This document shows, piece after piece, positions 1,082-57,912 of a DNA stretch of 64,000 nucleotides. Every line of letters begins with the position of its first letter. Position 1 is the stretch's first letter. The stretch comes from a plasmid: sequence record NZ_CP025192.1; one strand, 5' to 3'. The position numbers and the translations under genes are program-made. Below the pieces are notes generated by a model that was not told the DNA's origin, ran no database searches, and saw only the letters and a program-made list of their open reading frames with translations.

Positions 1082-3733
1082 CTACCGCCGTAGCGGGGCG
1101 GTAGTCTTGCATTCCGGAAAGCCTGAACAGCCAACTATCGGGCGGTAGCGCGCTTTCGGACGCTCCTTCATGTGACCAGTTTTGCAAGTCGGGCAGCTCT
1201 CGCCAGCGGCCATGGGCGTGGTCAGACGGATGCGGTTACCAGTCCGGCGCAGCTCACCTTGGGCGAGGTTGCGCTTGAAGTCGCACGCGCCGCATCCTTC
1301 GAAAGCTCCATAGGCACCCGAGCGCTGCGTCAGTATCCCCTTTCGGCATTTGGGGCACGGCTGAAGGTGCCCGCCGTCCTCCATCCACAATTTGATCAGC
1401 CCTTGGTCGGCCATCTCAATCAGAAAACGAGAGGGCGTAGACGCCTTGGTGTATATACGCACTTGCCGCCGAGCACGCGTCATGGCGACGTAGAAGACGC
1501 GGCGCTCCTCCGCCATGGGGAAGTCCTCGCCGTCCGGCATCGCGAGAACGAGCACCGGGTCGTCGGCGACTTGGCTGGGGAAGCCGAGATTGTCCTCGAC
1601 CATGTTGAGGATCATCACATAGTCGGCTTCGAGCCCCTTGGCCGAGTGGATCGTGCGGAATTCGATATCGAGTTCCTCGCCAAACTTTTGCCGCCAGGAT
1701 CCGATTTGGGCCTTAGGCTCATCGTGGTTGTAGCGGCCGAGCAGCATGACGCTAATCCGTCGGTCCTCCACACGATCGACCGCATCTTTCTGGATCTGCT
1801 CGTACAGCCGATTTAAGTGCGTCTCCACGCCCTGCAACGCCTGCTCCGACGAGTCGAAGGCGAAGGCCACGATCGACTGTCCTGCCCGCGTATTGGTCGT
1901 CTGAACCGTCTTTTCCAACTGGCGGGGATTCACTGAGATGAAGGCGCCCGAGGCGTCGCACAGCGACTGCGGGCAGCGGAAGGTGGTTACCATCCTTAGC
2001 TGTGAGGAGTGGGGGAACGTGCCGGCGAAGTCGGTCATTACCGTCAGATCGGCGCCCGCAAAGCGGTTGATGCTCTGCCAGTCGTCGCCGACGACGCAGA
2101 GATGCCCGCGCTGATCCGTCCGGTCGAGCAGCGCTTTCAAAAGTCTGACCCGCGCGCGTGAACTGTCCTGGAACTCGTCGGCGAAGATCATGGTATAGGG
2201 GCTGTTGTAGGCGCCGGCCTCGATCAGCGCCGCAGCCTCGACAAGCATATCGTCGAAGTCGATGCACGACGTATCTCGTAGCCGTCGCTCCCACTCATCC
2301 GCGATGCGCTCGTAAAGGGAGAGGAATCTCAGCGAGCGTGCCGAGTGCGCGTCGTCGTCGGACGCTTCGATCCGGCGACGGATGTCCGTCACCGTCGTGC
2401 CACCACCCTTCACGTGCTGCTGGAAACCGCGCACTAGGTTGGCTAGAGCCAGCGTGTCCATTGGCGGCTCGCCCTTAGCCGGACGGTTGGCGTCGTAGAC
2501 CAGTTGCACCCCACGCGCTTCGAGGGCTTCGGTGAGTTCACGAAAGCCTGCGCCACCCCGGACGCTGTGCGAAGTCGTCTCGAACAGGTCCGTCTCATGC
2601 TCCGCATGGCATTCGCGCTTCCATGCGACACCCACTAGATAGTCACCGGTGAAGTGCGGAGGCGGCATACCATCGCGCCCGAGCGCGAAGTGCTCGTGGT
2701 AGAGCTTGGCGTCGGGATAGTAGAAGTCGGGGCGATATTGCTGGTACGTAGCCGTCCGGGTGTCGTGCTGGTAATCCCGCTCGTACTGGTATTTCACGCC
2801 GTGGTAGAATAGCCAGTCCGCGATCAGCCGCTCCTCCTGGCTCTTCACCCAATCACCATTGGCGGTGCGAATGTCGCCGCGCCCGGATTCCTTTGGCTCG
2901 GTGAGATCTGCGGCGCGGCCAATGGGGCGCCCAAAGACCGTCCGGAACAGATCCCATTCGATCCCGAATCCCGGATCTCGGGCGCGCAGGTCCTCGACGA
3001 TCTTGACGATCATCTCGTTTTCCTGCCGTCGTTTGCCTATCCATCGGGCGACCGCCGGCTTTGGACCCTGCCTCGCCGTGATGACGTCCCTGCCGAAGGC
3101 ATGGAATGTCTTGACGGTGACGCGCTCCACGCCGTCGATCCCCTTCAGACGTTCACGCACCCGCTGACGAAGCTCGTCCGCAGCGTCGGTGTTGAAGGCG
3201 AGCAGCAGGATCTGTTCGGGTTCGGCCAGTCCTTGGTGGAGCACGTAGCCCGTCTTGGCGACCATCGTGGACGTCTTGCCCGAGCCGGCGGCCGCCACGA
3301 TCTGCACCGCATCGTCCATGCAAATGCAGGCATCCTTTTGTTCATCAGTCAACGGCGAGGCTTCGACCGTGTCGAAGAACACCTTCAACTTGGCCTTCTG
3401 GTCGGTCAGATGCTGCTGGTTGTGTGTTGCGAACTCGGCGAGGAGCTCCCTGGTCGCGACCCGGGTGACGGCACCGAAGCTGTCGTGCTCGGACCCTGGC
3501 GGGGGATAGGTTGCGATGATGCGATGCGCGGCGCTCTGCGGTATCCAGCGCGTCCGATCAACATCAGGCTCCCATTTGCTTCGCCAATCGCGTTCCTTTG
3601 TGGTTTGCTCCCGACGCCACCGGTCCGGGTCGAAGGGCTTTGTCGAACCGCCGCCGAAGGACGGTCGCTTGTCGTCTGAACCGAAAAGGCCGCCGACGAG
3701 CGCGACCGCGCCAAGGGCCAGCCATTCGATCAT
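1082..3733 (-). CDS. HelD/UvrD-family superfamily-1 helicase with an N-terminal hydrophobic segment and C-terminal tandem topoisomerase-type C4 zinc ribbons.
   Basis: 883 aa. Walker A is AAAGSGKTS within a HelD-like context (DEQKDACICMDDAVQIVAAAGSGKTSTM). The C-terminus carries CPKC...CGAC and CPTC...CSGFPEC Zn-ribbon repeats. Confidence 0.75.
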   Translation of the reverse strand: MIEWLALGAVALVGGLFGSDDKRPSFGGGSTKPFDPDRWRREQTTKERDWRSKWEPDVDRTRWIPQSAAHRIIATYPPPGSEHDSFGAVTRVATRELLAEFATHNQQHLTDQKAKLKVFFDTVEASPLTDEQKDACICMDDAVQIVAAAGSGKTSTMVAKTGYVLHQGLAEPEQILLLAFNTDAADELRQRVRERLKGIDGVERVTVKTFHAFGRDVITARQGPKPAVARWIGKRRQENEMIVKIVEDLRARDPGFGIEWDLFRTVFGRPIGRAADLTEPKESGRGDIRTANGDWVKSQEERLIADWLFYHGVKYQYERDYQHDTRTATYQQYRPDFYYPDAKLYHEHFALGRDGMPPPHFTGDYLVGVAWKRECHAEHETDLFETTSHSVRGGAGFRELTEALEARGVQLVYDANRPAKGEPPMDTLALANLVRGFQQHVKGGGTTVTDIRRRIEASDDDAHSARSLRFLSLYERIADEWERRLRDTSCIDFDDMLVEAAALIEAGAYNSPYTMIFADEFQDSSRARVRLLKALLDRTDQRGHLCVVGDDWQSINRFAGADLTVMTDFAGTFPHSSQLRMVTTFRCPQSLCDASGAFISVNPRQLEKTVQTTNTRAGQSIVAFAFDSSEQALQGVETHLNRLYEQIQKDAVDRVEDRRISVMLLGRYNHDEPKAQIGSWRQKFGEELDIEFRTIHSAKGLEADYVMILNMVEDNLGFPSQVADDPVLVLAMPDGEDFPMAEERRVFYVAMTRARRQVRIYTKASTPSRFLIEMADQGLIKLWMEDGGHLQPCPKCRKGILTQRSGAYGAFEGCGACDFKRNLAQGELRRTGNRIRLTTPMAAGESCPTCKTGHMKERPKARYRPIVGCSGFPECKTTAPLRR

Positions 3734-4198: not shown

Positions 4199-4738
4199 TT
4201 GCCGGATGCCTCGCAGGCTCCCTTGCTCGGCGTCGGCAGCGTCTGCCGCCGCCAGGTCGGCGGCGCCGACGGCGTGCTGCGCGTGGTCGACACGCTGGAC
4301 CGGGCGCTCGGGGATGCCCCGGTGAGGCTGCATCTGTACGGGGTCAAGTCCGAGGCAATGCACGCCCTGCGCGACCACCCCCGCGTCGCCTCGGTGGACA
4401 GCCAAGCCTACGGCCAGACCGCCCGGCGTGCCGCCTTCCTGGGCGGTCGGAGCAAGACCGATGCCTTCCTCGCCCGGCACATGGTGGCGTTCCAGCGCCG
4501 CCAGGTTGCCCTGCTGGCGGCGCCGGGGCAGGGGGCTCGTGCCCCCTTCTTCCCGGCCGCCCTGCCAACGCCTCCGACTGATCCCATCGAGGCGCGGGTG
4601 GCTGTCGCGGCCGAGGAACTCCGGGCGCTCCACGAGGACGGTGAGGTGGCGCGGACCGATCTGCACCCTCTCGCCGCCTTGCAATGGGCCTTCCTCGACG
4701 AGAACCCGGATCCGGAGGCGGCGGCCGAGGCCGCCTGA
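4199..4738 (+). CDS. Hypothetical protein.
   Basis: 179-aa ORF with natural-looking composition and no recognisable motif. It competes with overlapping ORFs in other frames. Confidence 0.3.
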   Translation: MPDASQAPLLGVGSVCRRQVGGADGVLRVVDTLDRALGDAPVRLHLYGVKSEAMHALRDHPRVASVDSQAYGQTARRAAFLGGRSKTDAFLARHMVAFQRRQVALLAAPGQGARAPFFPAALPTPPTDPIEARVAVAAEELRALHEDGEVARTDLHPLAALQWAFLDENPDPEAAAEAA

Positions 4739-4739
4739 T

Positions 4740-5105
4740 GGGGGAAAGGAGAGACGAGAAAGGGGGAAGGAGAACGGGAGGGATGGGGGAGGGGAGGAGC
4801 GTCCGAGAGACGGGAATGGCCAGAACTGTATCGTCAATCCGCCCGTGCCGGTCGTCTCTCCTCGGGTTGCTGAGGTCTGAGCCACGTCGCCGGCCGGGCC
4901 TACCCCCGCTTTCCCCGTAGCCGGGGAAAGCGCCTGCGGTTTGGCCTTCTCGGTCAGGCGCCGGGGCCGCGCCGCGCGCGGGGCCTTGCCCCGCTTCGTC
5001 GCAACCCCCGCCCCCTCCCTCGCACGCCTCAGGGGTAGGCCCGCCCGCCGCCGCGTCTCTGGTCGACCGCACCCGAGGAGAGACGACCGGCACGGGCCGG
5101 AAGCC
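4740..5105. repeat. A pure-purine tract of about 60 nt followed by nested long inverted repeats immediately upstream of ssb.
   Basis: The stretch 4740-4800 contains only G and A. The inverted repeat ccgtgccggtcgtctctcctcgggt (about 4843-4867) pairs with acccgaggagagacgaccggcacgg (about 5072-5096). An inner repeat cgctttccccg/cggggaaagcg lies at about 4905-4932. A further pair is gcctaccccc (about 4900) and ggggtaggc (about 5035). Confidence 0.6.
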
Positions 5106-5137
5106 TCCTGGGGGAGAGAGATGAAGAGGGTACGACG

Positions 5138-5632
5138 ATGGCTGGTTCGCTCAACAAGGTCACGCTGATCGGTCGCCTGGGCGCTGACCCCGAGACGCGC
5201 CACTTCACCAACGGCGGCCAGGTGGTCAGCCTGAGCATCGCCACCAGCGAAACCTGGAAGGACCGCTCCGGCGTGCGCCAGGAGCGCACCGAGTGGCACC
5301 GGGTCTCGATCTTCACCGAGGGCCTCGGCGACGTCGTGGCCCAGCACGCCCGCAAGGGGGCGCTGGTCTACATCGAGGGCAAGCTCGAAACCCGGAAGTG
5401 GCAGGACCGCGAGGGCAACGACCGCTACAGCACCGAGATCGCGCTGCGCCCCTTCCACGGTGTCTTCACCTTCCTGGCCGATGCCCCCGCCTCGGGCGGC
5501 CGGGAGGAACCTGCCTCCGGCGATGCTCCCGCCGCCGATGCTCCCGCCGGCGGTGCCGCGCGCCGGGCCCGTGGCCGTGCCGCCCCGGCCAAGGTGCGCG
5601 CTGCCGACCTGGACGACGACGTGCCGTTCTGA
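5138..5632 (+). CDS. ssb: Single-stranded DNA-binding protein.
   Basis: OB-fold N-terminus (KVTLIGRLGADPE...RTEWHRVSIF), Gly/Ala/Pro-rich linker and the canonical acidic tail DLDDDVPF. Confidence 0.95.
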   Translation: MAGSLNKVTLIGRLGADPETRHFTNGGQVVSLSIATSETWKDRSGVRQERTEWHRVSIFTEGLGDVVAQHARKGALVYIEGKLETRKWQDREGNDRYSTEIALRPFHGVFTFLADAPASGGREEPASGDAPAADAPAGGAARRARGRAAPAKVRAADLDDDVPF

Positions 5633-5740: not shown

Positions 5741-6019
5741 ATGTCCACCACCCCGCTCGCCTCCGGGGCGCTGCCGCGCCCGCGCGCGCTCACCACCCTG
5801 GTCTTCCACGACGTCCACGAGGAGGGATTCCAGGGCGCCGTCGGCCGCTGCCACGACCTGTCCACGGTCCACCCCTACGCCTTCGTGTGCCGCGAGGCCG
5901 CGAACCTGCTGGGGAACCACCGGGCGCTCCGCAGCCTCTGCGACGGCTACAGCCTCCGCACCCCCGGCTACCGGCCGCCCCCGCTGCCCGATTTCGACGA
6001 CAGCGAGATCCCCTTCTGA
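5741..6019 (+). CDS. Small hypothetical protein whose C-terminus (DFDDSEIPF) resembles the SSB C-terminal tip.
   Basis: 92-aa ORF directly downstream of ssb. The terminal DFDDSEIPF resembles the SSB DDDIPF/DDDVPF tip. No other motif. Confidence 0.4.
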   Translation: MSTTPLASGALPRPRALTTLVFHDVHEEGFQGAVGRCHDLSTVHPYAFVCREAANLLGNHRALRSLCDGYSLRTPGYRPPPLPDFDDSEIPF

Positions 6020-6030
6020 GGAGCGACGCC

Positions 6031-6291
6031 ATGACCTTCGTGCTGATCTTCGATCCGGACCCGATCCTCGGCAACGCGCCGCGCTTCTTCGGGCCCTTCG
6101 CCACCGAGGCGGCGGCCAGGCGCCACGCCGAGGACACGGGCATGACCGGCGGCGTCGACTTCGATACCGCCGCGGCACAGGCCGATGCCGAGGAGGGACA
6201 CTCCGGGTATTCCGGCTCCTTCGCCTGCGCCATCGCCCGCATCGAGCCGGTGGACGGCGCGGACTTCCCCGTCGAGGGGGAGCCATCCTGA
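6031..6291 (+). CDS. Hypothetical small protein.
   Basis: Internal ATG of the longer ORF 5293-6291, preceded by GAGG (tgaggagcgacgccATG). Acidic protein of 86 aa. Confidence 0.4.
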   Translation: MTFVLIFDPDPILGNAPRFFGPFATEAAARRHAEDTGMTGGVDFDTAAAQADAEEGHSGYSGSFACAIARIEPVDGADFPVEGEPS

Positions 6292-6677
6292 TGCTGCGCC
6301 AGTACCACGCCCCGCGCCGCCTCGGCGGCGACAACCCCCTCGGCGTCGGCACCGTCGCCATCGGGGCGGTCTTCTACCTCCAGGACGACGGCCACTGGCG
6401 CGACCGCTATCGCGGCGTCGCTGTCTGCCGCGCCCCGTGGATCGTCGAGGCCTTCCTCAACGGCCATTACCATGCCGCCCGCCGCGATCCCGCAACCGGC
6501 CACTGGCTCAGCCTCGCTGTCGCCAACCGCACCGACCTGGCCCTGGTCCGCTCGCTGCGCGACGGCCGCCGCGCCACCGTCGCCATCCGCACCCTGCAGC
6601 TGCACGAGGACGAGGGCCTCGGCTGGCCCGACAACCCGCGGTCCCGGCCGCCCGCGATCCCGGCCCGCCCGGCCTGA
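6291..6677 (+). CDS. Hypothetical protein.
   Basis: ATGA start/stop overlap with the preceding gene (translational coupling). 128 aa with natural composition. Confidence 0.4.
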   Translation: MLRQYHAPRRLGGDNPLGVGTVAIGAVFYLQDDGHWRDRYRGVAVCRAPWIVEAFLNGHYHAARRDPATGHWLSLAVANRTDLALVRSLRDGRRATVAIRTLQLHEDEGLGWPDNPRSRPPAIPARPA

Positions 6678-6723: not shown

Positions 6724-6972
6724 CATGCCGACCACGCCCCACCACGGGCGGCCCGATCCGCCCGCCGTCACCGGCGGCCTCGCCTCCGCGCGGCGCTGGC
6801 AGGCCGAGGCCGCCGCCCTGCGCGAGCACGCCCAGGCGACGCGCCTCTCCCCCACCCAGCGTGCCTCCCTCCTGCGCGGCGCCGTGGCCGCCGACCGCCA
6901 GGCGGAGTTCTGGCTCGAGGGCTGCCGGCAGGATGCCGGCAGGGCGGCCGGCACCGCCGGGCTTCGCCGCTA
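6724..6972 (+). CDS. Hypothetical small protein.
   Basis: 82-aa tail of ORF 6185-6973, from an internal ATG after a Pro-rich artefact region. Confidence 0.3.
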
Positions 6973-7560
6973 GTCCCCCTGCGACGGGACCGCCCGGCGC
7001 CGCCGCACCGGCAGCGCCCAGGACAGGTCATCCTCCTCCTGCTCTGACCGGGGCCGCCACGTCTCGCCACGCCGCGCCAGTCCCACCACCGTCGCCGCCG
7101 CCGCCGCCTGCACCGACAGCACATAGGCCTCCAGCAGCAGCCGCGCCGCCTCGCAGGTCTGCGCGTCCGCACGGTCCCGCAGCACCTCCAGTCCGCTGTC
7201 ACGCCGCTGCTGCGACAGCTCCACCAGCCGATCCTGCGCAGCCGTCGCCGCCGCCCAGGCCTCGTCCGACACCTGCCGCGCCGCCTCGGCACGGTCCATG
7301 TAATCCGTCAGCAGATCCCGCAGCGCCGCGTCCCGCCGTGCCCCGCGCTCCGGCGGCACGTTCGCCTCCACATGCGCCGCCACCGCCGCCTCGGCCTCCT
7401 CCCGCAGCCGGGGCCGCGGCCCCTCCAGCTGGAACGCCTCGGCCACCTGCAGCACCACGCGCACGTCCGGTACCGCCTCGTGCGCCTCTGTTTCCTTCTC
7501 CGGCAGCACCCGCAGTAGCGGGAACCGCACCACATTCGCGCCGTGGGTCATCCTTCCCAC
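6970..7560 (-). CDS. Hypothetical protein.
   Basis: 196-aa ORF with natural composition, convergent with the small plus-strand genes. Confidence 0.4.
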   Translation of the reverse strand: MGRMTHGANVVRFPLLRVLPEKETEAHEAVPDVRVVLQVAEAFQLEGPRPRLREEAEAAVAAHVEANVPPERGARRDAALRDLLTDYMDRAEAARQVSDEAWAAATAAQDRLVELSQQRRDSGLEVLRDRADAQTCEAARLLLEAYVLSVQAAAAATVVGLARRGETWRPRSEQEEDDLSWALPVRRRRAVPSQGD

Positions 7561-14912: not shown

Positions 14913-15234
14913 TAGACAGACCGCCCCAAGAGACTGAGGCGTGACCGCACCGCGGCCGAAGCCTGCATGCCTCGCTCACGTCCGGTGCGTGTGGCCCTCA
15001 CGTCAGCTTCACGTCCAGCTTCGATGGAACTCATTTCGGCGTTACGCCGGGACCATGTGGCGCTCACGCGGCGTGAAGGTGCCGCCAATGTCCGGTTAAC
15101 GTGGAAAGTCAGAGTCCATACACCAATGCACCGATGGTGCGCGGGCCTGCGGCCCAATCCTCGCTCCGACACGTCGATACCTCCATTCGCAAGCCTCCCT
15201 GGCAGTCTCCCTCCCCACCAGAAGGAGGTCCGCC
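14913..15234. promoter_or_regulatory. Candidate oriT and divergent promoter region.
   Basis: Gene-free region between divergent transfer operons. It contains three direct repeats YTCACGTCM, one inverted copy (ACGTGgaaag) and the palindrome tcacgcGGcgtga. Confidence 0.4.
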
Positions 15235-15549
15235 ATGGACGAGCCACCCAACACCAATCCCTTGCGAACGGCCGGATCGGCGGAAGTCCTCCGCCGCCTC
15301 GATCACCAGGACACCGTCCTGCGCCTCCTCGGCGAGCAGCTGGCGGCCATCATCAAGCTGCTCACGCCGGCTCCCCAGGAGGGGCCCACCACCACCGAGA
15401 TGCTCCAAGCCATCGTCGCCCTGCTCGGCGAGCACACGCCCCTGCTGCGCGATCTCGAGGGCCACGCCCTCAACCTCACGCGGGAGCTGCCCCGCCTGGT
15501 CGCCCACGAGGTCGTCCTGGCCCAGCGCTTCGGGGAGCGCCAGCCATGA
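15235..15549 (+). CDS. Relaxosome accessory protein (TrwA/TraJ-like position).
   Basis: 104-aa gene immediately upstream of the relaxase, coupled to it by an ATGA overlap. Confidence 0.4.
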   Translation: MDEPPNTNPLRTAGSAEVLRRLDHQDTVLRLLGEQLAAIIKLLTPAPQEGPTTTEMLQAIVALLGEHTPLLRDLEGHALNLTRELPRLVAHEVVLAQRFGERQP

Positions 15550-18500
15550 TGACCTTCCGCAAGCTCGCCGCCGCCAGCTCCGGCAAGCTGCTCCGCGCCT
15601 ACTTCACCGAGAGCGCCCCCGAGCCGGCCTTCGATCCGGCGGTCACACCAGGGAAGCATCTCGATCCCGGCGGGCGGCTGACCGCCTACTACACCCGCCG
15701 CGACAGCCGGGCCTCCTGGCGGCCGGACATGCCCATGGCCATCGCCGAGGCCCTCGGCATCGACGTCTCCCGCATGCCGAAGGACGAGGCGCTCGACCGC
15801 CTGTTCGAGGCCAGGCGGGCCGATACCGGCGAGGCCTGGTCGGGCCAGAAACGCGAGATCAGCGCCCTCGACCTGACCCTCGCCCCGCACAAGTCGGTTT
15901 CCCTGGCCGCCGAGTTCGCCGCCACGCCGGCCGAGCGCGCCGCGATCTGGCACGCCATCGACCGTGCCAACGACGCCACCATGCGCTACGTCGCCGCCGA
16001 GCTGGGCTGGGCCCGCAAGGGACAGGGCGGCGCGCTGGGCGCCGACCCCGGGGCGGTCGGCTGGGTCAGCTTCCGCCACCACACCGCCCGGCCGACCGTC
16101 TCGGTCCGCGACGGCAAGGAGGGGGCCACCTACCTCGCCACGGTTGCCACCATGGACGGCGACCCCCACGCCCATATCCACAACGCCCTGTTCAACGCCG
16201 TCGTCACCGAGGACGGGCGGGTCGGCTCCCTCGACACCAAGGCGCTGACCGGGACCCGCCTGCACGAGTTCGGCGCCTACTTCCAGGCCCGGCTGGCGGA
16301 CCACCTGCGGGAGCTGGGGGCGCGGGTGTCCTACGACCGCCAGCAGCAGGCGGTGGTGCTCGACGCCATCCCGCAGGCGGCCTCCGACCTGTTCTCCAAG
16401 GGCCGCCGGCAGGTCGAGCGGTCCGCCAAGGCCTACGCCACGAGCCAGGGCCTCGACTGGGACACCCTCTCCGCCGAGGGCAAGTTCAAGATTCTCGCCG
16501 TCACCGGCCTCGCCACCCGCCTGGAAAAGAACGGCCCCAAGGGCGACCGGGAGATCTGGCTGGCCCAGGCCGAGGCCATCGGCTGGAAGCACACCACCGT
16601 CATGGACGAGGTGGCCCACCCGAAGCTGTCGGACGCCGAGCGGTTCGACGCCGCCTACCGCTTCGCGGCCCGGCACCTCGCCACCGAGTTCCGCACCGCG
16701 GCGGTGATCGACCACGACAAGCTGCGCCTCTACGCCGCCCGGGGCCTGATCGGCACCGGCATCGCCGGCGGCACCGGGGACATCGACCGGGTGGTGGCGC
16801 TGATCGAGCGGCGCGGCATCACCCTGCGCGGCGAACAGGTCGCCCTCGTCGTCGGCCTCTCGGGCGACAAGGTGCGGGTGACCAACACCGCCCAGCTGCG
16901 GCTGGAGGAGGCGCTGCAGGCCGAGGCCCACCGGGCGGCGCGCGACCGCTCCGGCGCCCTGCCGGCCCGCGCCATCACCGCGGCGATCGACGCCGTCATC
17001 GGCGCCGGGCAGCTCGACCTCACCCGCGAGCCCGCCCATGCCGCCGCCCAGCGCGCGGCGATCTACGCCCTGGGCCAGGGCGGGGCGCTGTCGATGCTCA
17101 CCGGCGTCGCCGGCGCGGGCAAGACCACGCTGCTGCGGCCGCTGGTCGCCGCCTGGCAGGCCGACACGCGCTTCGCCGCGGGCGGCCGGGAGGTGATCGG
17201 CACGGCGACGGCCTGGCGGCAGGCCAGCGCCCTGGGGGAGGCCGGCATCGGCCAGACCCTGGCCATGGACCCGCTGCTGAAGGCCATCGAGGCCGGGCGG
17301 ATCGTGCCGACCCGCAACACGGTGCTGGTGATCGACGAGGTGAGCCAGGTCGCCCCCCGCGCCCTGCTGACGCTGCTGCAGGTGCAGGCGCGCACCGGCA
17401 TGACCCTCAAGGTGCTGGGCGACCGCGAGCAGGCGCAGTCGATCGAGGCGGGCGACGCGGTGGAGCTGATGCGCCGGGCGCTGCCGCGCGCGGAGCAGAC
17501 GGAGATCCTCGACACCGTGCGGCAGCGCAGCCTGGAGGACCGCCAGATCGCGGGGCTGTTCCGCGAGGGGCAGGCGGGCGAGGCGCTGGCCCGCAAGCGG
17601 GCGCGGGGCGACGGCTCGGCCCGGCTGCTGGGCGGCGACCAGGACCAGGTGGTGGAGCAGATCGCCGACCACTACCTGGCCCGGCGCGACGCCCTGCTGG
17701 CCGCTGGCTCGAAGCTGGAGGTGACCGTCTCGGCGCCGACCAACGAGGACGTGGCCGACATCAGCCGGGCGGTGCGCGCGCGGATGCGGGCGCGCGGCGA
17801 GATCGGCGCCGACGAGGTGGTCTACCGGGCCATCGACCAGCGCGGCGAGACCTACGACCTGCCGATCGCCACGGGCGACAGGGTGCGCCTGTTCCGGCGG
17901 ACCATGGGTCGGATCGACGGCAAGGTGGCGAACTTCGGCAGCAACGGCGACACCGTCACGGTGCTCGGCCGCACCGAGGCCGGCCTGCTGTTGCGCGACA
18001 AGACGGGGCGGGTGGGCGAGGTGGAGTGGCGCCGGCTGACGGACGGGGCGACGGGGCGGCTGCTGCTGGGCTTCGGGCACGCCCTGACGGTGGACGCGGC
18101 GCAGGGCATCACCTCGGGCGAGCACATCAACGCCCTGCCGCGCGGCACCGCCGGCGTCACCGCCTTCAAGGGCTACGTCGCCGAGAGCCGGGCGAAGGGC
18201 ACGACCTGGACCATGATCTCGGAGGCGGCCACCTTCGAGGCGGTCAAGCGCGGCCGCGCCCTGGGCGACGCCACGCCCATCACCAGCGAGGATCTCTGGG
18301 CCAAGGCGGCAGAGGGGCTGGCGCAGAAGCCCTACAAGCCGCTCGGCAGCGACCTGCTCTCCGACATCCGGGAGGGCAGGGAGAAGGCCACCCTGTCCTT
18401 CATCCGCTTCCAGCACCTGGTGGAGACGGCCGAGCACCAGGGGCGCGACCTCGGCCGCGAGATCCGGGAGCACCGGCAGGCGGTGGCCCTGCAGGCGGCG

Positions 18501-18668
18501 ATGCCGCGCAGCATCGCCGCCCTGGACGCGGCGCTGTCGCTGATGCGCGGAGGATCGGCGACTGCGGCCGAGGAGCATCTGCGGCGGCTGCGCGTCGAGA
18601 CGGAGGTGGCGCGCCGGGAGATCGAGGGGGTGGCGAAGCCGTCGACCCCCTCGGCGGGGATGGGATGA
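15546..18668 (+). CDS. MobF-family conjugative relaxase-helicase (TrwC/TraI-like).
   Basis: N-terminal TrwC-type relaxase domain with paired Tyr (LLRAYF ... LTAYYTRRD) and the 3-His motif DGDPHAHIHNALFN. C-terminal RecD-like helicase with Walker A GVAGAGKTT. Confidence 0.9.
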   Translation: MMTFRKLAAASSGKLLRAYFTESAPEPAFDPAVTPGKHLDPGGRLTAYYTRRDSRASWRPDMPMAIAEALGIDVSRMPKDEALDRLFEARRADTGEAWSGQKREISALDLTLAPHKSVSLAAEFAATPAERAAIWHAIDRANDATMRYVAAELGWARKGQGGALGADPGAVGWVSFRHHTARPTVSVRDGKEGATYLATVATMDGDPHAHIHNALFNAVVTEDGRVGSLDTKALTGTRLHEFGAYFQARLADHLRELGARVSYDRQQQAVVLDAIPQAASDLFSKGRRQVERSAKAYATSQGLDWDTLSAEGKFKILAVTGLATRLEKNGPKGDREIWLAQAEAIGWKHTTVMDEVAHPKLSDAERFDAAYRFAARHLATEFRTAAVIDHDKLRLYAARGLIGTGIAGGTGDIDRVVALIERRGITLRGEQVALVVGLSGDKVRVTNTAQLRLEEALQAEAHRAARDRSGALPARAITAAIDAVIGAGQLDLTREPAHAAAQRAAIYALGQGGALSMLTGVAGAGKTTLLRPLVAAWQADTRFAAGGREVIGTATAWRQASALGEAGIGQTLAMDPLLKAIEAGRIVPTRNTVLVIDEVSQVAPRALLTLLQVQARTGMTLKVLGDREQAQSIEAGDAVELMRRALPRAEQTEILDTVRQRSLEDRQIAGLFREGQAGEALARKRARGDGSARLLGGDQDQVVEQIADHYLARRDALLAAGSKLEVTVSAPTNEDVADISRAVRARMRARGEIGADEVVYRAIDQRGETYDLPIATGDRVRLFRRTMGRIDGKVANFGSNGDTVTVLGRTEAGLLLRDKTGRVGEVEWRRLTDGATGRLLLGFGHALTVDAAQGITSGEHINALPRGTAGVTAFKGYVAESRAKGTTWTMISEAATFEAVKRGRALGDATPITSEDLWAKAAEGLAQKPYKPLGSDLLSDIREGREKATLSFIRFQHLVETAEHQGRDLGREIREHRQAVALQAAMPRSIAALDAALSLMRGGSATAAEEHLRRLRVETEVARREIEGVAKPSTPSAGMG

Positions 18669-26868: not shown

Positions 26869-27099
26869 GGCAGGGCGCTCAGTTCCGGCCAGGGACCGAC
26901 CCCGTTCCAGGCCTGCCGCAGCGCGCCCCTGACCACGGCCGCCACCCCCGGGGCCCGGTAGGGTAGCCAGTCAGGCCGTTGCAGCTTGTTGTGTCCGATG
27001 CGATAGAACGCCCGGGTGTTCGCTCCAGATACTGAGTGGGCAGGGTTTCAGCGTTGGTCGGGCCGCCAGCGGCGCAGACCAATGCCTGGAGGCCCACTC

Positions 27100-38857: not shown

Positions 38858-39083
38858 TGCGGGCGTGTTCCGGCTGCGTGGGCGAAAGCTCAGGCCGGAA
38901 CGCGCAGCCCCGGACCTTACCCCTGCTATGGCATGCGCAGCCCGGAAAACTCAGGGACGGCCATCGGGTCGGCCACTCTTGCTTGACAGACCAGCACGCC
39001 ATTCACCATCCTGGGCGCAAGGGGACATCCGCGATCGCCCCGTGAGGCTTCGGCCGAAGCATCGCGTCCGACACTCCACAACC

Positions 39084-39932
39084 ATGGAGGGGACGCCCAT
39101 GCCTGCACCTGACACCATCACCACCACACAGCTCGCTCGGCTCGTCGGCCTGCCCGATGCACCGGTGCTGCTCGACGTACGGACCGAGGAGGACTACGCG
39201 GCCGACCCGCGCCTGCTCCCGGCTTCCTTCCGGCGCGAACATCGCGACGTGACCACCTGGATGGCGGGCCACGCCGGTCGGCACGTGGTGGTCGTCTGCC
39301 AGCGCGGCCTCAAGCTCAGCCACGGTGTCGCCGCCTGGCTGCGTCACGGCGGTGCCAGGGCCGAGGTGCTCGAGGGCGGCTTCGAGGCATGGGCTGCCGA
39401 AGGCCACCTGCTGGTGCATCCGAACCGCCTGCCGACACGCGATGCGCAGGGGCGCACGGTGTGGGTGACCCGTTCCCGGCCCAAGGTGGACCGGATTGCC
39501 TGCCCCTGGCTGATCCGGCGCTTCGTGGATCCGTCCGCCGTCTTCCTCTTCGTCGCGCCGTCCGAGGTCGGCGCGGTGGCCGAACGCTTCGGGGCCGCGC
39601 CCTTTGACGTCGAGGGGGTGTTCTGGAGCCATCGTAGCGAGACCTGCACCTTCGACACCATGGTCCAGGAGTTCGGATTGACCTCTGAGCCGCTGCTCCG
39701 GCTGGCGGAGATCGTCCGCGGCGCCGACACCGCCCGGCCCGACCTCGCGCCGCAGGCGGCGGGGCTGCTCGCGGCGTCCCTGGGCCTGTCCCGCATGCAC
39801 CGGGATGACCTGGCGCAACTCGACGCCGCAATGGGTCTGTACGATGCCTTCTACCGCTGGAGCCGCGATGCCGTCGCCGAGACCCACAACTGGCCAGCGT
39901 CGCCGAGCGCAGCTGGGAGGTCTGGCCAGTGA
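39084..39932 (+). CDS. chrB: Chromate resistance regulator ChrB with an N-terminal rhodanese-like domain.
   Basis: ChrB signature VWVTRSRPKVDRIACPWLIRRFVDPSAVFLFV. N-terminal rhodanese-like fold (VLLDVRTEEDY...VVVCQRGLKLSHG). The stop overlaps the chrA start. Confidence 0.8.
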   Translation: MEGTPMPAPDTITTTQLARLVGLPDAPVLLDVRTEEDYAADPRLLPASFRREHRDVTTWMAGHAGRHVVVVCQRGLKLSHGVAAWLRHGGARAEVLEGGFEAWAAEGHLLVHPNRLPTRDAQGRTVWVTRSRPKVDRIACPWLIRRFVDPSAVFLFVAPSEVGAVAERFGAAPFDVEGVFWSHRSETCTFDTMVQEFGLTSEPLLRLAEIVRGADTARPDLAPQAAGLLAASLGLSRMHRDDLAQLDAAMGLYDAFYRWSRDAVAETHNWPASPSAAGRSGQ

Positions 39933-46683: not shown

Positions 46684-47589
46684 TTATGCGGCCATGGGAG
46701 TGCCGTCCAGCATGGCGTAGTAGCGTTCTTCGGCTTCGGCAGGTGGTATATTGCCGATGGGCGCGAGAAGCCGGCGGTTGTTGAACCAGTCCACCCATTC
46801 CAGCGTGGCGTATTCGACGGCCTCAAAGGATCGCCACGGACCACGCCGGTGGATCGCCTCGGCCTTGTAAAGGCCGTTGATCGTCTCTGCCAAAGCGTTG
46901 TCGTAGCTGTCGCCTACACTGCCCACCGATGGCTCGATCCCGGCTTCGGCAAGGCGCTCGGTATATTTGATCGAGACATACTGGCTGCCGCGGTCGCTGT
47001 GATGGATCAGGCCACCACGACGGACAGGACGCCGATCATGGATCGCCTGCTCCAGGGCATCCAGCACGAAGCTGGCATGCGCCGTCCTGCTTACCCGCCA
47101 GCCCACGATATAGCGGGCGTAGACGTCGATCACGAAGGCCACGTAGACGAACCCTGACCAAGTCGCGACATAGGTGAAGTCCGACACCCACAGCATGTTC
47201 GGCGCCGGGGCGTGGAACTGCCGGTTCACCTGGTCGAGCGGGCAAGGCGCGGCCTTGTCGCTCATCGTCGTGCGCACCGGCTTGCCGCGGATCACGCCCT
47301 GCAAGCCCAGCTCGCGCATCAGCCGCTCCACCGTACATCGGGCTATGTCGAAGCCTTCGCGCCGCATCTGTCGCCAAACCTTGCGCACGCCGTAGACGCC
47401 GAAGTTCTCGGTAAAAACCCGCATCACCTCTGGCTTCAGGGCCCGATCACGCTGGGCACGCGACGATAAGCGCGAGGGATCGCGCCGCTGCGCCAGGTGC
47501 TCATGGTAGGTGGATGGGGCGATCGGCAGAACCCGGCAGATCGGCTCGACCCCATAGTCACCGCGATACTCGTCGATGAACGCGATCAT
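46684..47589 (-). CDS. IS3-family transposase OrfB (DDE integrase) of IS B.
   Basis: [29 protein letters not shown]...[11 protein letters not shown] (DDE core). Confidence 0.9.
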
Positions 47590-47912
47590 CGCTTGAACGG
47601 GCGGTCGAGCTCCGCCTGGGCAAAATACGCAGATGCCTTGCGCAGGATCTCGTTGGCCTGGCGCAGCTCGCGGTTCTCGCGCTCCAGCGCCTTGAGCTTG
47701 TCAGCCACATCGGTGGGCACACCAGCTCGTTTGCCGCTGTTCACCTCGGCCTTCTTCACCCACTCCAGCAGCGTGTGCCCCGAACAGCCGAACTTCTCAG
47801 CAATGGATGTGATTGCGGCCCAGCGGGACGGATGGTCGCCTTCGTGATCCAGCACCATGCGGACCGCCCGTTCACGAACCTCCGGTGCAAACTTGTTCGT
47901 CGTCTTGCTCAT
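47586..47912 (-). CDS. IS3-family transposase OrfA of IS B.
   Basis: [27 protein letters not shown]... with a leucine-zipper-like C-terminus. Overlaps orfB by 4 nt. Confidence 0.9.
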
Positions 47913-51289: not shown

Positions 51290-52591
51290 CTAACGATCTC
51301 CACGTTGAAAACAGAGGACGGACTCAACTGTTCCGAGCCTGTTTGTGCGACCTGTAGCATGCGGATGAATCGCCGCCATAGTTCGATGCACTGTAAAATC
51401 TTCTCGTCGCATTAACTGCAGGTTCCGACTGGCTGCCATCTCTACCAGAACGGCAGGAAGATTATTGTGAATGTCTTTGTAGTGCGAATCCTGTACTACA
51501 AAAATCGCTGCTGCACCGTCCTTAAGAACACTGGAAATCCTGGAGATAGACCGGCTCATTTTATCGAAGTAGTCGAGATGCGTCTTTAAGTAATATCCTG
51601 CAGATGACTTGGACGGGTGAAGTCTAACTTTTTCTAAGAAGTCGCGGCAGGTGGTGCCCCACTGGTTATCGTATTCGATAGGTTGCGATGGGACGCGAGT
51701 TGAACCAATCATCCGCCGGCCAAGGGCATGCACATCCGACCGAATAAGGCCATTCAATACAGCCAATTCAATCTGAGTGGCCACTGCGTAGTCTATCCGA
51801 GTGCAGTAAGGTGGTGAAGTGAGCACAAAATCTACTGTCGCCTCCCCCGCGAAAAACGAAGTGCTATCTGCTAGTCGAGCTTCTGCGAAGGTGCATTTCA
51901 GAGGATGATCGTCTGCACACTTTGAAAGCGCTTCTGCCATGCCTCTAATCTGGGATAAAAAGGTGCTCCGCAGCTCGTCATCGCGGACATGAACGAGCTC
52001 CTCGGCAGATTTCGCCCTACGCCACCATGTCGGATTGGAAGATCGGAAGGTGACGGACGCACTTCGTGCCACAGCAAATAGTGCGACGTAGAAGGCTGAA
52101 GCGATGCTTGATAGACGATCAAGATCAGCGCCCCGTTCCGATATTGTGAACCGACCCACGAGGCTGCTTGAAATCGCCTGCTCGATTGCACGGACATGGC
52201 GCGCCGTCTCGTGATCGAACCAACTCAGCAGAGGATCATCCGCCGGAAGAGTCACTGGAACATCGCAATGATCAATTAGCTTCTGACCAAGTGGCTCAAG
52301 GCTGTCTGCTTCGCTTGGAGGTAGAAGCCTTGCTCGCGCAACAGCAATCATAACCGGATTGAGATCGAGACCAATCCCAAGGTGACCGTGATTCCGAGCT
52401 GCATAAATTGTTGTCCCGCTTCCGTTCCACGGATCCAGGACAACAGCACGTGGCGCTAGGCGTGCAGAGCTGATTATGTCGGAAGCAAAAGCCTCCGGAT
52501 AACCGGCGTAGTAGGGAAAAAACCCCTCCCATCCAACTTGTAGGCGCCGATTTCGCTTGGGAGACGGGATTGCGAGACTGTCGAACATCAT
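51290..52591 (-). CDS. DNA methyltransferase (N6-adenine or N4-cytosine) with motif I upstream of motif IV.
   Basis: AdoMet motif VLDPWNGSGTT near the N-terminus and catalytic LTSPPY about 220 aa downstream. A 3-nt gap separates it from the DUF262 gene. Confidence 0.75.
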   Translation of the reverse strand: MMFDSLAIPSPKRNRRLQVGWEGFFPYYAGYPEAFASDIISSARLAPRAVVLDPWNGSGTTIYAARNHGHLGIGLDLNPVMIAVARARLLPPSEADSLEPLGQKLIDHCDVPVTLPADDPLLSWFDHETARHVRAIEQAISSSLVGRFTISERGADLDRLSSIASAFYVALFAVARSASVTFRSSNPTWWRRAKSAEELVHVRDDELRSTFLSQIRGMAEALSKCADDHPLKCTFAEARLADSTSFFAGEATVDFVLTSPPYCTRIDYAVATQIELAVLNGLIRSDVHALGRRMIGSTRVPSQPIEYDNQWGTTCRDFLEKVRLHPSKSSAGYYLKTHLDYFDKMSRSISRISSVLKDGAAAIFVVQDSHYKDIHNNLPAVLVEMAASRNLQLMRREDFTVHRTMAAIHPHATGRTNRLGTVESVLCFQRGDR

Positions 52592-52643
52592 GTCTGCGCA
52601 GTCTGTAGGAGGTACGCAGGGGTCAAGTCTGCCTTGCTCTCCA

Positions 52644-52961
52644 TCATGCGACCGTTGTCAGCCCGTTCTTGGCGACGAGCGAGAGAAGCTTAAGGGACGG
52701 GCCTTGCGGGCGCTTCTCGCCGCGCTCCCACTGGCTGACGAGGCCCGTCGTGACGTTGAGATAGCGCGCGAACACGGCTTGGCTGGCCCCTTCCCGTTCA
52801 CGGAGAGCACGGATTTCTTCAGGTGTGAGCGGGCGCACGGGCGTCAGGCAGGCGTCGTCGAACTGGCGCATGGTCTGCTTGTCCATGAGCCCGGCATTGT
52901 GGAGGCCCTCGGCGGTCTCGTGGATCGAGGCCATGGCCCTGCTGCGATACTGCTTACTCAT
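52644..52961 (-). CDS. higA: HigA-type XRE-family HTH antitoxin.
   Basis: C-terminal HTH ARYLNVTTGLVSQWERGEKRPQGPSLKLLSLV (the toxin-first HigA2-like arrangement). 8-nt overlap with the upstream toxin gene. Confidence 0.7.
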   Translation of the reverse strand: MSKQYRSRAMASIHETAEGLHNAGLMDKQTMRQFDDACLTPVRPLTPEEIRALREREGASQAVFARYLNVTTGLVSQWERGEKRPQGPSLKLLSLVAKNGLTTVA

Positions 52962-53328
52962 CCTCCGTTACCTCCGTCAGCACGCCGGCGCCGATCGCTG
53001 TCGCGAGCGCCGCATCGTCATAAGCCAGCAACTGCGCCGCCAGCAGCTTGAAAGCGGCCAGCTCGTCATCGCGGATGTTGTCCTGCTCGTTCTTGGCGAA
53101 GCCATGCACGAAGAAGGACCGCTCCCCAACCCGGAAGAGGATGATCGTGCGGAACCCGCCCGACTTCCCTGCTCCCTCGCGGGCAATGCGCTGCTTGATG
53201 ACCCCGCCGCCCAGATCGGCGTCGATCAGTCCCCGCCCTGCCCTGCCGACCGCCTCGCGCAACGCCGCGTCGCTCAACCGCGCCTTCCTGGCGAACCGCG
53301 CAAACGGCTTGTTCTTGAATATCCTCAC
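52954..53328 (-). CDS. higB: RelE/ParE-superfamily toxin (HigB-like; toxin gene first).
   Basis: 124 aa. Its family and gene order match HigB2-like toxins that are paired with C-terminal-HTH antitoxins. Confidence 0.65.
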   Translation of the reverse strand: MRIFKNKPFARFARKARLSDAALREAVGRAGRGLIDADLGGGVIKQRIAREGAGKSGGFRTIILFRVGERSFFVHGFAKNEQDNIRDDELAAFKLLAAQLLAYDDAALATAIGAGVLTEVTEDE

Positions 53329-56683: not shown

Positions 56684-57586
56684 TTAGGCTGCCAGGGCGG
56701 GCTCCTCAAGCCTGGCGTAGTAGCGCGCCTCTGCTTCGGCCGGTGGCATGTTGCCGATCGGCTCGAGGAGGCGGCGGTGGTTGAACCAGTCGACCCACTC
56801 GAGGGTGGCATATTCGACGGCCTCGAGGGATCGCCACGGGCCACGGCGCCGGATGACCTCGGTCTTGAACAGGCCGATGACGGTCTCGGCGAGGGCGTTG
56901 TCGTAGCTGTCGCCGACGCTGCCGACCGAGGGCTCGATCCCGGCCTCGAGCAGGCGTTCCGTGTACCGAATGCTGAGGTACTGCCCACCCCTGTCGCTAT
57001 GATGGGTCAGGCCGCCCTTCGCCGGGCGGCGGTCATGCAGGGCTTGTTCCAGGGCATCGAGGACAAAGCCCGCATGCGCCGTCCGCGAGACCCGCCAGCC
57101 GACGATGCGGCGGGCGAAGACGTCGATGACGAAGGCGGCATAGACGAAGCCCTGCCAGGTCGCGACGTAGGTGAAGTCCGACACCCACAGCATGTCCGGT
57201 CGCGGCGCCCGGAACTGGCGGTTCACCTTGTCCGCCGGGCAGGGCGTGGCCTTGTCGGCGATCGTGGTCCTGACCTCCTTGCCGCGGACGACGCCGCGCA
57301 GGCCCATGCTCCGCATCAGGCGTTCCACCGTGCAGCGGGCCACCGCGATGCCCTCCCGGCCGAGCTGCCGCCAGACCTTGCGGGCGCCGTAGACCCCGAA
57401 GTTGGCCGCATGCACCTGCCGGATCCCCTCCATGAGCACCAGGTCCTGCCGGGCGCGCGGCGAGGTCTTGGCCGGATCACCACGCCGGGCAACATGGGCG
57501 TGGTAGGTCGACGGCGCGATCGGCAGCACCCTGCAGATCGGCTCGACACCGTAGACCCCGCGGTGATCGTCGATGAAGGCGATCAT
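56684..57586 (-). CDS. IS3-family transposase OrfB of IS C.
   Basis: About 75% identical by eye to the OrfB at 46684-47589 ([29 protein letters not shown]...). Confidence 0.9.
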
Positions 57587-57912
57587 GGCTTCGAGCGGCG
57601 GTCGAGCTCCGCCACCGCGAAATAGGCCGACGCCTTGCGCAGGATCTCATTGGCCTGGCGCAGCTCGCGAACCTCGCGTTCCAGAGCCTTGATCCGCTCC
57701 CCCTCCGCACTCGTCGGCCCAGGCCGCAGGCCCCGGTCGCGCTCAGCCTGCCTTACCCAGCCGCGCAGAGTCTCCGTCGTGCAGCCGATCTTGGCCGCGA
57801 TCGAGCCGATCGCCGCCCACTGCGAGGCGTGGTCGCCTCCGTGCTCCAGCACCATCCGCACCGCCCGTTCCCGGACCTCAGGCGAATACCGGTTCGACGT
57901 CTTCTTCGTCAT
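57583..57912 (-). CDS. IS3-family transposase OrfA of IS C.
   Basis: [28 protein letters not shown]... Overlaps orfB by 4 nt. Confidence 0.9.

Follow-up and report, generated by a model that had tools for sequence, protein, structure and literature searches.

Positions 4740 to 5137 of the 64,000-nucleotide (nt) stretch of plasmid record NZ_CP025192.1 analyzed here (the window) hold a purine-rich tract followed by nested inverted repeats that end just upstream of ssb, the gene for a single-stranded DNA (ssDNA)–binding protein. A first-pass annotation had suggested that this sequence is a single-strand promoter of the Frpo type, lying in a conjugative plasmid's leading region. The locus thus raises the question of whether the repeats form a functional unit and, if so, on which strand and at which stage of plasmid life they act. 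We find that they belong to a previously undescribed family of alphaproteobacterial hairpins specific to the presumed transferred strand. Judged by its anatomy, context, and strand, the hairpin is, with a probability of about 0.55, an Frpo/ssi-like single-strand signal forming a separate new family.

A conserved branched hairpin upstream of ssb

The window is 100% identical to the Roseomonas mucosa plasmids NZ_CP025059.1 (reverse strand) and CP099475.1. The source plasmid is a large theta-type replicon of 267 kb that encodes RepA and ParA. The element and its surroundings comprise the following features:

4740–4799, + strand: purine-rich, G-run-rich tract (57/60 purines), beginning 2 nt past the stop codon of the upstream gene
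4800–4812: small hairpin with a 4-bp stem (CGTC-CGAGA-GACG), lying after the purine tract and before the 257-nt hairpin, seen in folds
4841–4867: outer stem, left arm, one half of a perfect 27-nt inverted repeat and, on the − strand (presumed transferred), the 3′ arm
4841–5097, − strand: entire 257-nt branched hairpin; the − strand is the proposed folding and functional strand
4908–4931: side-branch hairpin with 10-bp arms and a 4-nt loop; nearly invariant in alignments A1/A2 (columns 91 to 116)
4978–4994: apical hairpin with 7-bp arms and a 3-nt loop, seen in the sequence, in single folds, and in consensus folds
5071–5097: outer stem, right arm, and thus the 5′ arm of the − strand hairpin
5098–5137, + strand: spacer of 40 nt between hairpin and ssb start codon, with a Shine-Dalgarno–like GAAGAGG at 5123–5129
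5138–5632, + strand: ssb, the first downstream gene (ATG at 5138; Pfam SSB, E 1e-32)
5741–6019, 6031–6291, 6291–6677, and 6725–6973, + strand: annotated small genes after ssb, co-oriented with it

The outer arms are 100% complementary and lie 203 nt apart. The first-pass annotation had described perfect 25-bp arms about 200 bp apart; the repeat is real and its spacing holds, but the arms are 27 nt long. They close a branched hairpin of ~100 pairs, their sequence occurs once in the window, and none of 100 shuffles gave a match. Within them, a second tier pairs 4879–4906 with 5032–5059 (82% complementary), and the smaller hairpins that had been noticed between the arms are present as the side-branch and apical hairpins listed above. 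Comparison of family members reveals four parts: an outer clamp of variable sequence, a core that hardly varies, a long upper stem, and a side hairpin. The most conserved part of the core is a 7-bp helix, TGCGGTC/GACCGCA, with 5-nt bulges GAnnn in the 5′ arm and GCAAA in the 3′ arm. The core is partly fixed by the search pattern of the scan described below; locus L016, which was found by BLAST independently of that scan, has it with small changes. The whole element is ~74% G+C and has neither an A+T-rich apex nor an UP-like element.

A BLAST search recovered the hairpin in 16 Roseomonas plasmids at 82 to 100% identity. In the more distant of these, the element is 82 to 89% identical, compared to 77 to 82% for adjoining coding DNA of the same records, and homology starts exactly at the left arm (query position 142). 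The element is thus conserved at least as highly as neighboring coding DNA. The span of the outer clamp is exactly 257 nt in 9 of 11 fetched Roseomonas plasmids, the hairpin base lies 38 to 43 nt from ssb in the 10 Roseomonas relatives with an identified outer stem, and the element is intergenic in all RefSeq annotations. The small hairpin at 4800–4812 also has an equivalent in Roseomonas relatives, GTCC-GNAG-GAC.

Plasmid BLAST with the element gave matches in Roseomonas, Bradyrhizobium, and Rhizobium only, and weak matches to the right arm led to conjugative plasmids of the latter two genera that carry a homologous hairpin. A scan of GTDB (one genome per species) for two conserved motifs 160 to 190 nt apart yielded at least 119 matching stretches, of which 106 of those listed were retained as members by sequence similarity. 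Member genera include Bradyrhizobium, Rhizobium, Bosea, Afipia, Nitrobacter, Rhodopseudomonas, Mesorhizobium, Phyllobacterium, Ancylobacter, Parvibaculum, Roseomonas, Plastoroseomonas, and others. A hidden Markov model (HMM) of the family matches the window element at E 6e-31. Scan matches in unrelated phyla look like chance, except for plasmid 2 of a “Terriglobus sp.” metagenome-assembled genome (L024, OZ241387.1, Acidobacteriota), which has a Roseomonas-type copy. This hairpin is 77% identical to that of the window and has an SSB gene downstream; either mis-binning or cross-phylum transfer accounts for it.

Base pairing is maintained by compensatory changes. In the template orientation, that is, on the strand that is template for the downstream gene, 34 of 75, 14 of 73, and 23 of 101 pairs are compensatory in the three clades aligned separately. 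Canonical pairs occupy ~95% of alignment cells, compared to 32 to 45% when partners are slid by one to three columns and 84 to 92% in column shuffles. When the full family was aligned with MAFFT, indels between clades kept RNAalifold from recovering the outer stem, and per-clade alignments were therefore used. Even so, in a rough alignment of all 45 representatives (nonredundant members with <90% identity), 24 of the 39 pairs predicted by RNAalifold show compensatory changes. The first-pass annotation had held that a structure not conserved in related plasmids would speak against its proposal; the structure is kept in these and far beyond, with compensatory changes. The element is a conserved unit and not a chance palindrome.

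The position of the hairpin relative to genes is equally constant. It is co-oriented with, and 35 to 45 nt upstream of, either ssb or an unannotated gene for a 195–amino acid (aa) protein that is followed by a gene for ArdC. From the anchor motif to the ATG, most members have 56 to 71 nt, both before ssb and before the unrelated 195-aa gene. Among the 106 listed loci, the first downstream gene encodes the 195-aa protein in 94 and SSB in 7; in Bradyrhizobium and Rhizobium plasmids, the hairpin lies ~40 nt before the 195-aa gene, and the ArdC gene comes next. An ArdC-like gene follows in 70 of the 78 listed loci with enough flank, a gene for a ParB_N protein lies ~3.9 kb upstream in 47 listed loci, and a DUF736 gene is found downstream in 39; all three are on the strand of the downstream gene in every listed locus where they were found. 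In Roseomonas relatives, the region upstream of the hairpin encodes a DNA cytosine methyltransferase, a ParB_N protein, and a DpdA-family protein. Pfam confirms ArdcN with a zincin peptidase domain, ParB_N, and DpdA. Such gene sets are the described repertoire of leading regions and anti-defense islands (PMC11541004). In the window itself, the hairpin ends 40 nt before the ATG of a Pfam-supported ssb that is followed by co-oriented small genes without Pfam or NCBIfam matches. Both the placement directly upstream of ssb and the leading region–type neighborhood that had been proposed are therefore borne out, the latter also by the ParB_N, methyltransferase, DpdA-like, and ArdC genes of relatives.

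Two neighboring gene products deserve mention. The 193- to 195-aa protein (e.g., L013:6098-6685), with the N-terminal pattern MTKTAR...TTxEMVRLxCPD...SESFGL, takes the place of SSB in Hyphomicrobiales and has no Pfam or NCBIfam match. The gene just upstream of the hairpin in relatives (L006:2011-3033) encodes a 340-aa DpdA-family protein (Pfam DpdA, 55 bits), of which window positions 4223–4738 (+) retain a 171-aa C-terminal remnant that scores 23.7 bits, below the cutoff. DpdA is the DNA transglycosylase of 7-deazaguanine DNA modification, and a DNA-modifying enzyme encoded in a leading region could serve as an anti-restriction device.

The purine tract behaves differently from the hairpin. 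It had been described as a run of ~60 nt of only G and A; a tract of this length exists, with 57 of its 60 positions purines and with two C and one T inside. Its sequence is not conserved (BLAST matches in three records only). In 11 of 11 Roseomonas plasmids (L003 to L012 and the window), a 50-nt, G-run–rich stretch of 86 to 94% purines lies between the upstream stop codon and the hairpin, so that composition is kept while sequences differ. The tract is absent in Hyphomicrobiales members such as L013 to L016, and we treat it as an accessory of the Roseomonas clade, outside the family-wide core. On the − strand, which we presume to be transferred, it is an unstructured pyrimidine stretch 3′ of the hairpin. 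With at least six G runs of 3 to 5 nt each in 4740–4799, the + strand could form G-quadruplexes; the − strand is C/T-rich.

Additional copies were observed at several loci. Some Rhizobium-type loci contain a second, shorter hairpin (~150 nt) on the same strand, 2 to 3.3 kb upstream of the first (L051:7322-7667, L061:6071-6406, L062:4551-4892, and L117:3129-3468), with a weak match to the apical part of the family model. It, too, is located just 5′ of a gene start, an arrangement reminiscent of F and ColIb with their several Frpo copies. Some individual strains carry two or three members on different contigs (L027/L033, L036/L059, L037/L110, L067/L087, and L092/L102/L115). Roseomonas strains have one hairpin per plasmid on several plasmids, and the module is thus present in multiple co-resident elements.

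Strand preference and the presumed direction of transfer

Folding of both strands as ssDNA, a check that the first-pass annotation had put forward, revealed strong structure that is better on the − strand: for 4740–5137, the free energy was −127.6 kcal/mol (z −6.9) on the − strand and −112.6 kcal/mol (z −3.0) on the + strand. For a 284-nt segment with the element, the minimum free energies as DNA were −122.1 and −105.8 kcal/mol, respectively. When positions 1–22000 of the window were folded in sliding 300-nt segments, only the element stood out strongly: its GC-corrected z was −6.6 for the − strand, and the next best value was −2.6.

The − strand is the template of ssb, and the same preference holds throughout the family. 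For each of the 45 representatives, folding as DNA gives the downstream gene's template strand a lower energy than the sense strand (means of −91.5 and −80.6 kcal/mol; Wilcoxon p 5e-9), with ~7 G·T pairs per representative on the template strand and 2.4 on the sense strand. Counted on the union of pairs predicted for either strand, to avoid bias, the template:sense ratios of G·T wobbles in the three clades are 160:36, 109:35, and 46:12, and the corresponding consensus energies are −96/−53, −96/−62, and −183/−142 kcal/mol. For the Roseomonas copies, RNAalifold yielded a − strand consensus of −191.8 kcal/mol (106 pairs, 14 with compensatory changes) and a + strand consensus of −144.5 kcal/mol (95 pairs, 8 compensatory).

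As positive controls, we used sequences of characterized single-strand promoters (PMC11541004, Suppl. Table 2). In F ssiD/Frpo and ColIb Frpo1-3, the transferred strand is more stable by 10 to 17 kcal/mol and has 4 to 10 G·T pairs, compared to 0 to 3 on the other strand. The uniform template preference of the representatives and the same asymmetry in the controls indicate that the element has the strand signature of Frpo, which speaks against a leader in the sense mRNA as well as against any function confined to duplex DNA. The comparison with F and ColIb elements that had been suggested at the outset thus has a divided result: strand asymmetry and G·T excess are shared, but sequence homology is absent, since nhmmer with the family HMM gave no match at E ≤ 10 to four known and candidate Frpo/ssi sequences, ColIb Frpo1, F ssiD, and F ssiE among them.

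Which strand is transferred can be approached from two features of the window:

15124–15142, − strand: R388-like origin of transfer (oriT) motif, an IR2-type hairpin GCGCACC-ATC-GGTGC followed by ATTG
15546–18668, + strand: MobF/TrwC-family relaxase-helicase gene (Pfam TrwC, E 1e-39; AAA_30, E 3.5e-27)

The − strand carries, some 400 nt upstream of the mobF operon, the sequence GCGCACC-ATC-GGTGC-ATTGGTGT-ATGGAC, which closely resembles the nicked strand of R388, GCGCACC-GAAA-GGTGCG-TATTGTCT/ATAG (identical to NC_028464.1 over 55 nt upstream of trwABC). This IR/nic motif has one match in the window, with 0 expected by chance. From the alignment (GTCT/ATAG in R388, GTGT/ATGG here), the nick would fall near 15120/15119 on the − strand. 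The strand nicked in R388 serves as template for trwABC, ssb, and ardC, the latter two of which point back toward oriT. The window mirrors this geometry, and the − strand should therefore be the transferred one, with its 5′ end near 15120 and running to lower coordinates; this is the template strand of ssb and the better folder. By the R388 arrangement, the relaxase gene would be the last part to be transferred. No equivalent hairpin and no family-HMM match were found in R388 upstream of its ardC-ssb operon.

The first-pass annotation had cited a MobF relaxase and a coupling-protein ATPase in support of a conjugative context. The relaxase is indeed encoded in the window; the genes annotated for the source plasmid over the window include neither a coupling protein nor a type IV secretion system. 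PLSDB types the source plasmid and most of its relatives as non-mobilizable. Across the family, the element is found with plasmids typed MOBF, MOBP, and MOBQ, and its occurrence with three relaxase classes favors recognition by a host factor over dependence on a particular relaxase.

A proposed single-strand signal and its rivals

The reading that we favor is that a strand-specific DNA hairpin acts while the leading region of the plasmid is single-stranded. In conjugation, a nick near 15120 would release the − strand, whose 5′ end would lead into the recipient, with transfer running toward lower coordinates; the ssb cluster would arrive first and the hairpin sequence after it, on the ssb template strand. 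In the recipient, 5097–4841 would snap back into a branched hairpin of ~100 bp that SSB could not melt. This duplex-like structure may recruit a host enzyme, RNA polymerase being the likeliest candidate; as at Frpo, the polymerase would then transcribe ssb and the small genes behind it while there is as yet no complementary strand. Instead, or as well, a priming enzyme may start complementary-strand synthesis in the same direction, as at ssi/sso. Most of the confidence stated above goes to promoter function, which by itself falls somewhat short of even odds; priming alone takes a small share. The fixed distance of 35 to 45 nt to the start codon, before two unrelated first genes, favors expression over pure priming.

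The resemblance to class 1 Frpo elements (F Frpo1/ssiD and Frpo2; ColIb-P9 Frpo1-3) is extensive. These, too, are imperfect hairpins of 250 to 330 nt formed from one strand, and F ssiD and ColIb Frpo fold comparably, with 114 to 126 pairs. They sit within the leading region directly 5′ of ssb, establishment, or anti-defense genes, with the transferred strand (presumed in our case) as template, and they show the thermodynamic strand asymmetry and G·T excess described above. In the known Frpo entries that Suppl. Table 2 of PMC11541004 gives from the start codon onward, the hairpin starts a few tens of nucleotides from that codon, as it does in the window. The differences are that the hosts are Alphaproteobacteria and not Enterobacteria; that the G+C-rich element of the window is without the A+T-rich apex, UP-like element, or recognizable hexamers of Frpo; and that a single copy is present, compared to two or three. 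The ssDNA promoters described so far comprise several unrelated sequence classes, found by 300-nt folds of leading regions with ΔG < −75 kcal/mol (PMC12672017). The window element, at −124.7 kcal/mol, lies well below this threshold. Classes 1 to 3 of that study are enterobacterial, and our family is set beside them by description. Its authors sought −35/−10 boxes within hairpins with PromoterHunter and validated promoters by 5′ rapid amplification of cDNA ends in transconjugants. They also report that induction of the leading region of pESBL, an enterobacterial plasmid, is much diminished in Sinorhizobium meliloti, and they suggest that its promoters are not recognized by distant sigma factors (PMC12672017).

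Several observations weigh against the single-strand promoter. Scans with sigma-70 consensus found no −35/−10 hexamers in either arm in the window, L013, or L016. A relaxed hexamer scan was passed by 1 of 45 representatives; among six known or candidate Frpo/ssi sequences, the strict scan was passed by F ssiD only, and this low pass rate in the controls makes missing hexamers weak evidence. By-eye inspection of the conserved core for sigma-54, RpoH-type, ECF-type (extracytoplasmic function), and Caulobacter-type motifs found none that fitted. The leading region of the window has one copy of the element, whereas F has two and ColIb three, and there is no sequence similarity to Frpo/ssi. The identity of the transferred strand is a motif inference made for the window plasmid alone and for no Hyphomicrobiales member; Bradyrhizobium pUSDA94-1 has two relaxase loci and no recognizable nic, and its gene order is uninformative on the transferred strand. 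The hairpin is ~10 kb from the putative nick, with opposite-strand genes in between. Finally, a G·T excess in ssDNA and a G·U excess in RNA made from that strand would be the same asymmetry. The original proposal of an Frpo-like promoter thus gains from anatomy, context, and strand asymmetry and loses from the missing homology, the single copy, and, weakly, the missing hexamers.

Other single-strand systems are instructive. The origins ssoA and ssoU and the ssi sites of the G4 and PriA types are orientation-dependent single-strand hairpins of 150 to 300 nt that recruit RNA polymerase, DnaG, or PriA for priming, and some of them also aid establishment after conjugative mobilization. Our hairpin shares with them its orientation dependence as a single-strand structure. 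It differs in residing on a large theta-type plasmid with RepA and ParA rather than on a rolling-circle replicon, and in keeping a start-codon spacing that a pure priming site does not need. An ssoA-type origin was rejected, as the CS-6 motif TAGCGT is absent from both strands of 4841–5097 and the plasmid is a 267-kb RepA/ParA replicon. EGeRS1 regions of the pLS20 family are likewise conserved, GC-rich inverted-repeat regions directly 5′ of ardC/establishment operons without a recognizable promoter; they differ in being 400 to 600 bp long, multibranched, and from Firmicutes (PMC8708921). In pLS20, the transferred strand is the non-template strand, and a single-strand promoter was excluded by the authors (PMC8708921). 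In contrast, the folding strand and the presumed transferred strand of our element are both the template.

A structured antisense RNA, that is, a rod-like transcript of ~260 nt made from the − strand opposite ssb and regulating ssb or the upstream gene, is an unlikely explanation, although it would produce the same asymmetry (G·U wobbles and lower energy) and is equally compatible with the covariation. Near the element, no Rfam family matched at the gathering threshold, and E ≤ 10 gave chance-level microRNA and small nucleolar RNA matches only. Consensus scans found no promoter-like or terminator-like signal on either strand. A perfect 27-bp duplex within a near-continuous helix of ~100 bp would be a substrate of RNase III and is unusual for a stable bacterial small RNA, and the structured part misses the ribosome-binding site and start codon of ssb, the likeliest targets. 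The element is also tied to conjugative leading-region gene sets, and proven single-strand promoters carry the same signature. If the hairpin acted instead in the sense mRNA, as a leader or intercistronic structure serving as a processing site, a stabilizer, or a barrier between the upstream gene and ssb, its location between two co-oriented genes at a fixed distance from a ribosome-binding site would be explained, and the + strand does fold well (−112.6 kcal/mol, z −3.0; −105.8 kcal/mol for the 284-nt segment). Yet the sense strand is the worse folder in all 45 members, wobbles favor the other strand by 3-4 to 1, consensus energies are −53, −62, and −142 kcal/mol compared to −96, −96, and −183 kcal/mol, and neither a T run after the stem nor a terminator-like site was found in the window, L013, or L016. 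We therefore regard this possibility as improbable.

Inverted repeats are a common operator architecture, and large ParB_N proteins are encoded nearby in relatives, which would suit a double-stranded site, either a cruciform or paired operators for a ParB_N protein or for a repressor of establishment genes. However, a cruciform is not readily extruded from arms with 203 nt between them, the arm sequences vary between clades while complementarity is kept, and covariation over ~100 pairs together with a one-strand G·T excess is unexplained if the DNA stays duplex. Such a site is thus very unlikely. We give still less credence to a selfish or structural repeat (a miniature inverted-repeat transposable element or transposon remnant) or a second oriT. 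Perfect 27-nt terminal inverted repeats around ~200 nt in a window rich in insertion sequences (ISs) may recall a mobile repeat, but there is one copy in the window, with no dispersed copies and no target-site duplication or flanking direct repeat. Syntenic position and orientation are constant across the 106 listed loci, and divergence tracks that of neighboring genes. As to a second oriT, the R388-like motif at 15124–15142 is separate and lies by the relaxase gene, the element is 10 kb from mobF, and it occurs with three relaxase classes.

A variant of the single-strand signal reading, which we put forward tentatively and consider rather less probable than the signal itself, is that the family is an Alphaproteobacteria-wide class of single-strand DNA control element acting without sigma-70–type hexamers, its core being the recognition site of a host factor with no earlier link to conjugative establishment or of the first gene product. 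The candidate readers of the core would be an alternative sigma factor, DnaG, PriA, SSB, or the 195-aa protein.

Other features of the window and implications for alphaproteobacterial plasmids

Two IS6-family transposase genes at 2076–2786 (+) and ~52399–53109 (−) encode the same protein, WP_058390100.1, in inverted orientation and bracket ~50 kb that includes the leading region, mobF, a type I restriction-modification system, and copper, nickel, and chromate resistance genes. The left copy has cut short a gene for a UvrD-like helicase. Rfam matches at gathering score in the window were two ALIL pseudoknots (IS3-type frameshift signals) at 47515–47631 (−) and 57512–57628 (−), a chrB-a motif at 39016–39101 (+) near the chromate genes, and an nhaA-I riboswitch at 27014–27071 (+) upstream of nhaA.

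To our knowledge, IncF and IncI plasmids of enterobacteria are the only ones in which single-strand promoters have been demonstrated, and searches for further ssDNA promoters have, as far as we know, leaned on homology or on E. coli–type hexamers. A full-text search for ssDNA promoters with Alphaproteobacteria found no paper. If the favored reading is true, early expression from the incoming strand would extend to plasmids of symbionts and opportunist pathogens. If the tentative hexamer-free variant also holds, ssb, ArdC, and other establishment genes would be coupled to the entry of plasmids or integrative and conjugative elements (ICEs) in rhizobia, Bradyrhizobium, and Roseomonas. The family, with members on more than 100 alphaproteobacterial plasmids and likely ICEs, provides a model, in sequence and structure, by which leading regions and their uncharacterized first genes may be located, and its bulged core helix is a defined target for asking which host enzyme reads ssDNA in these bacteria.

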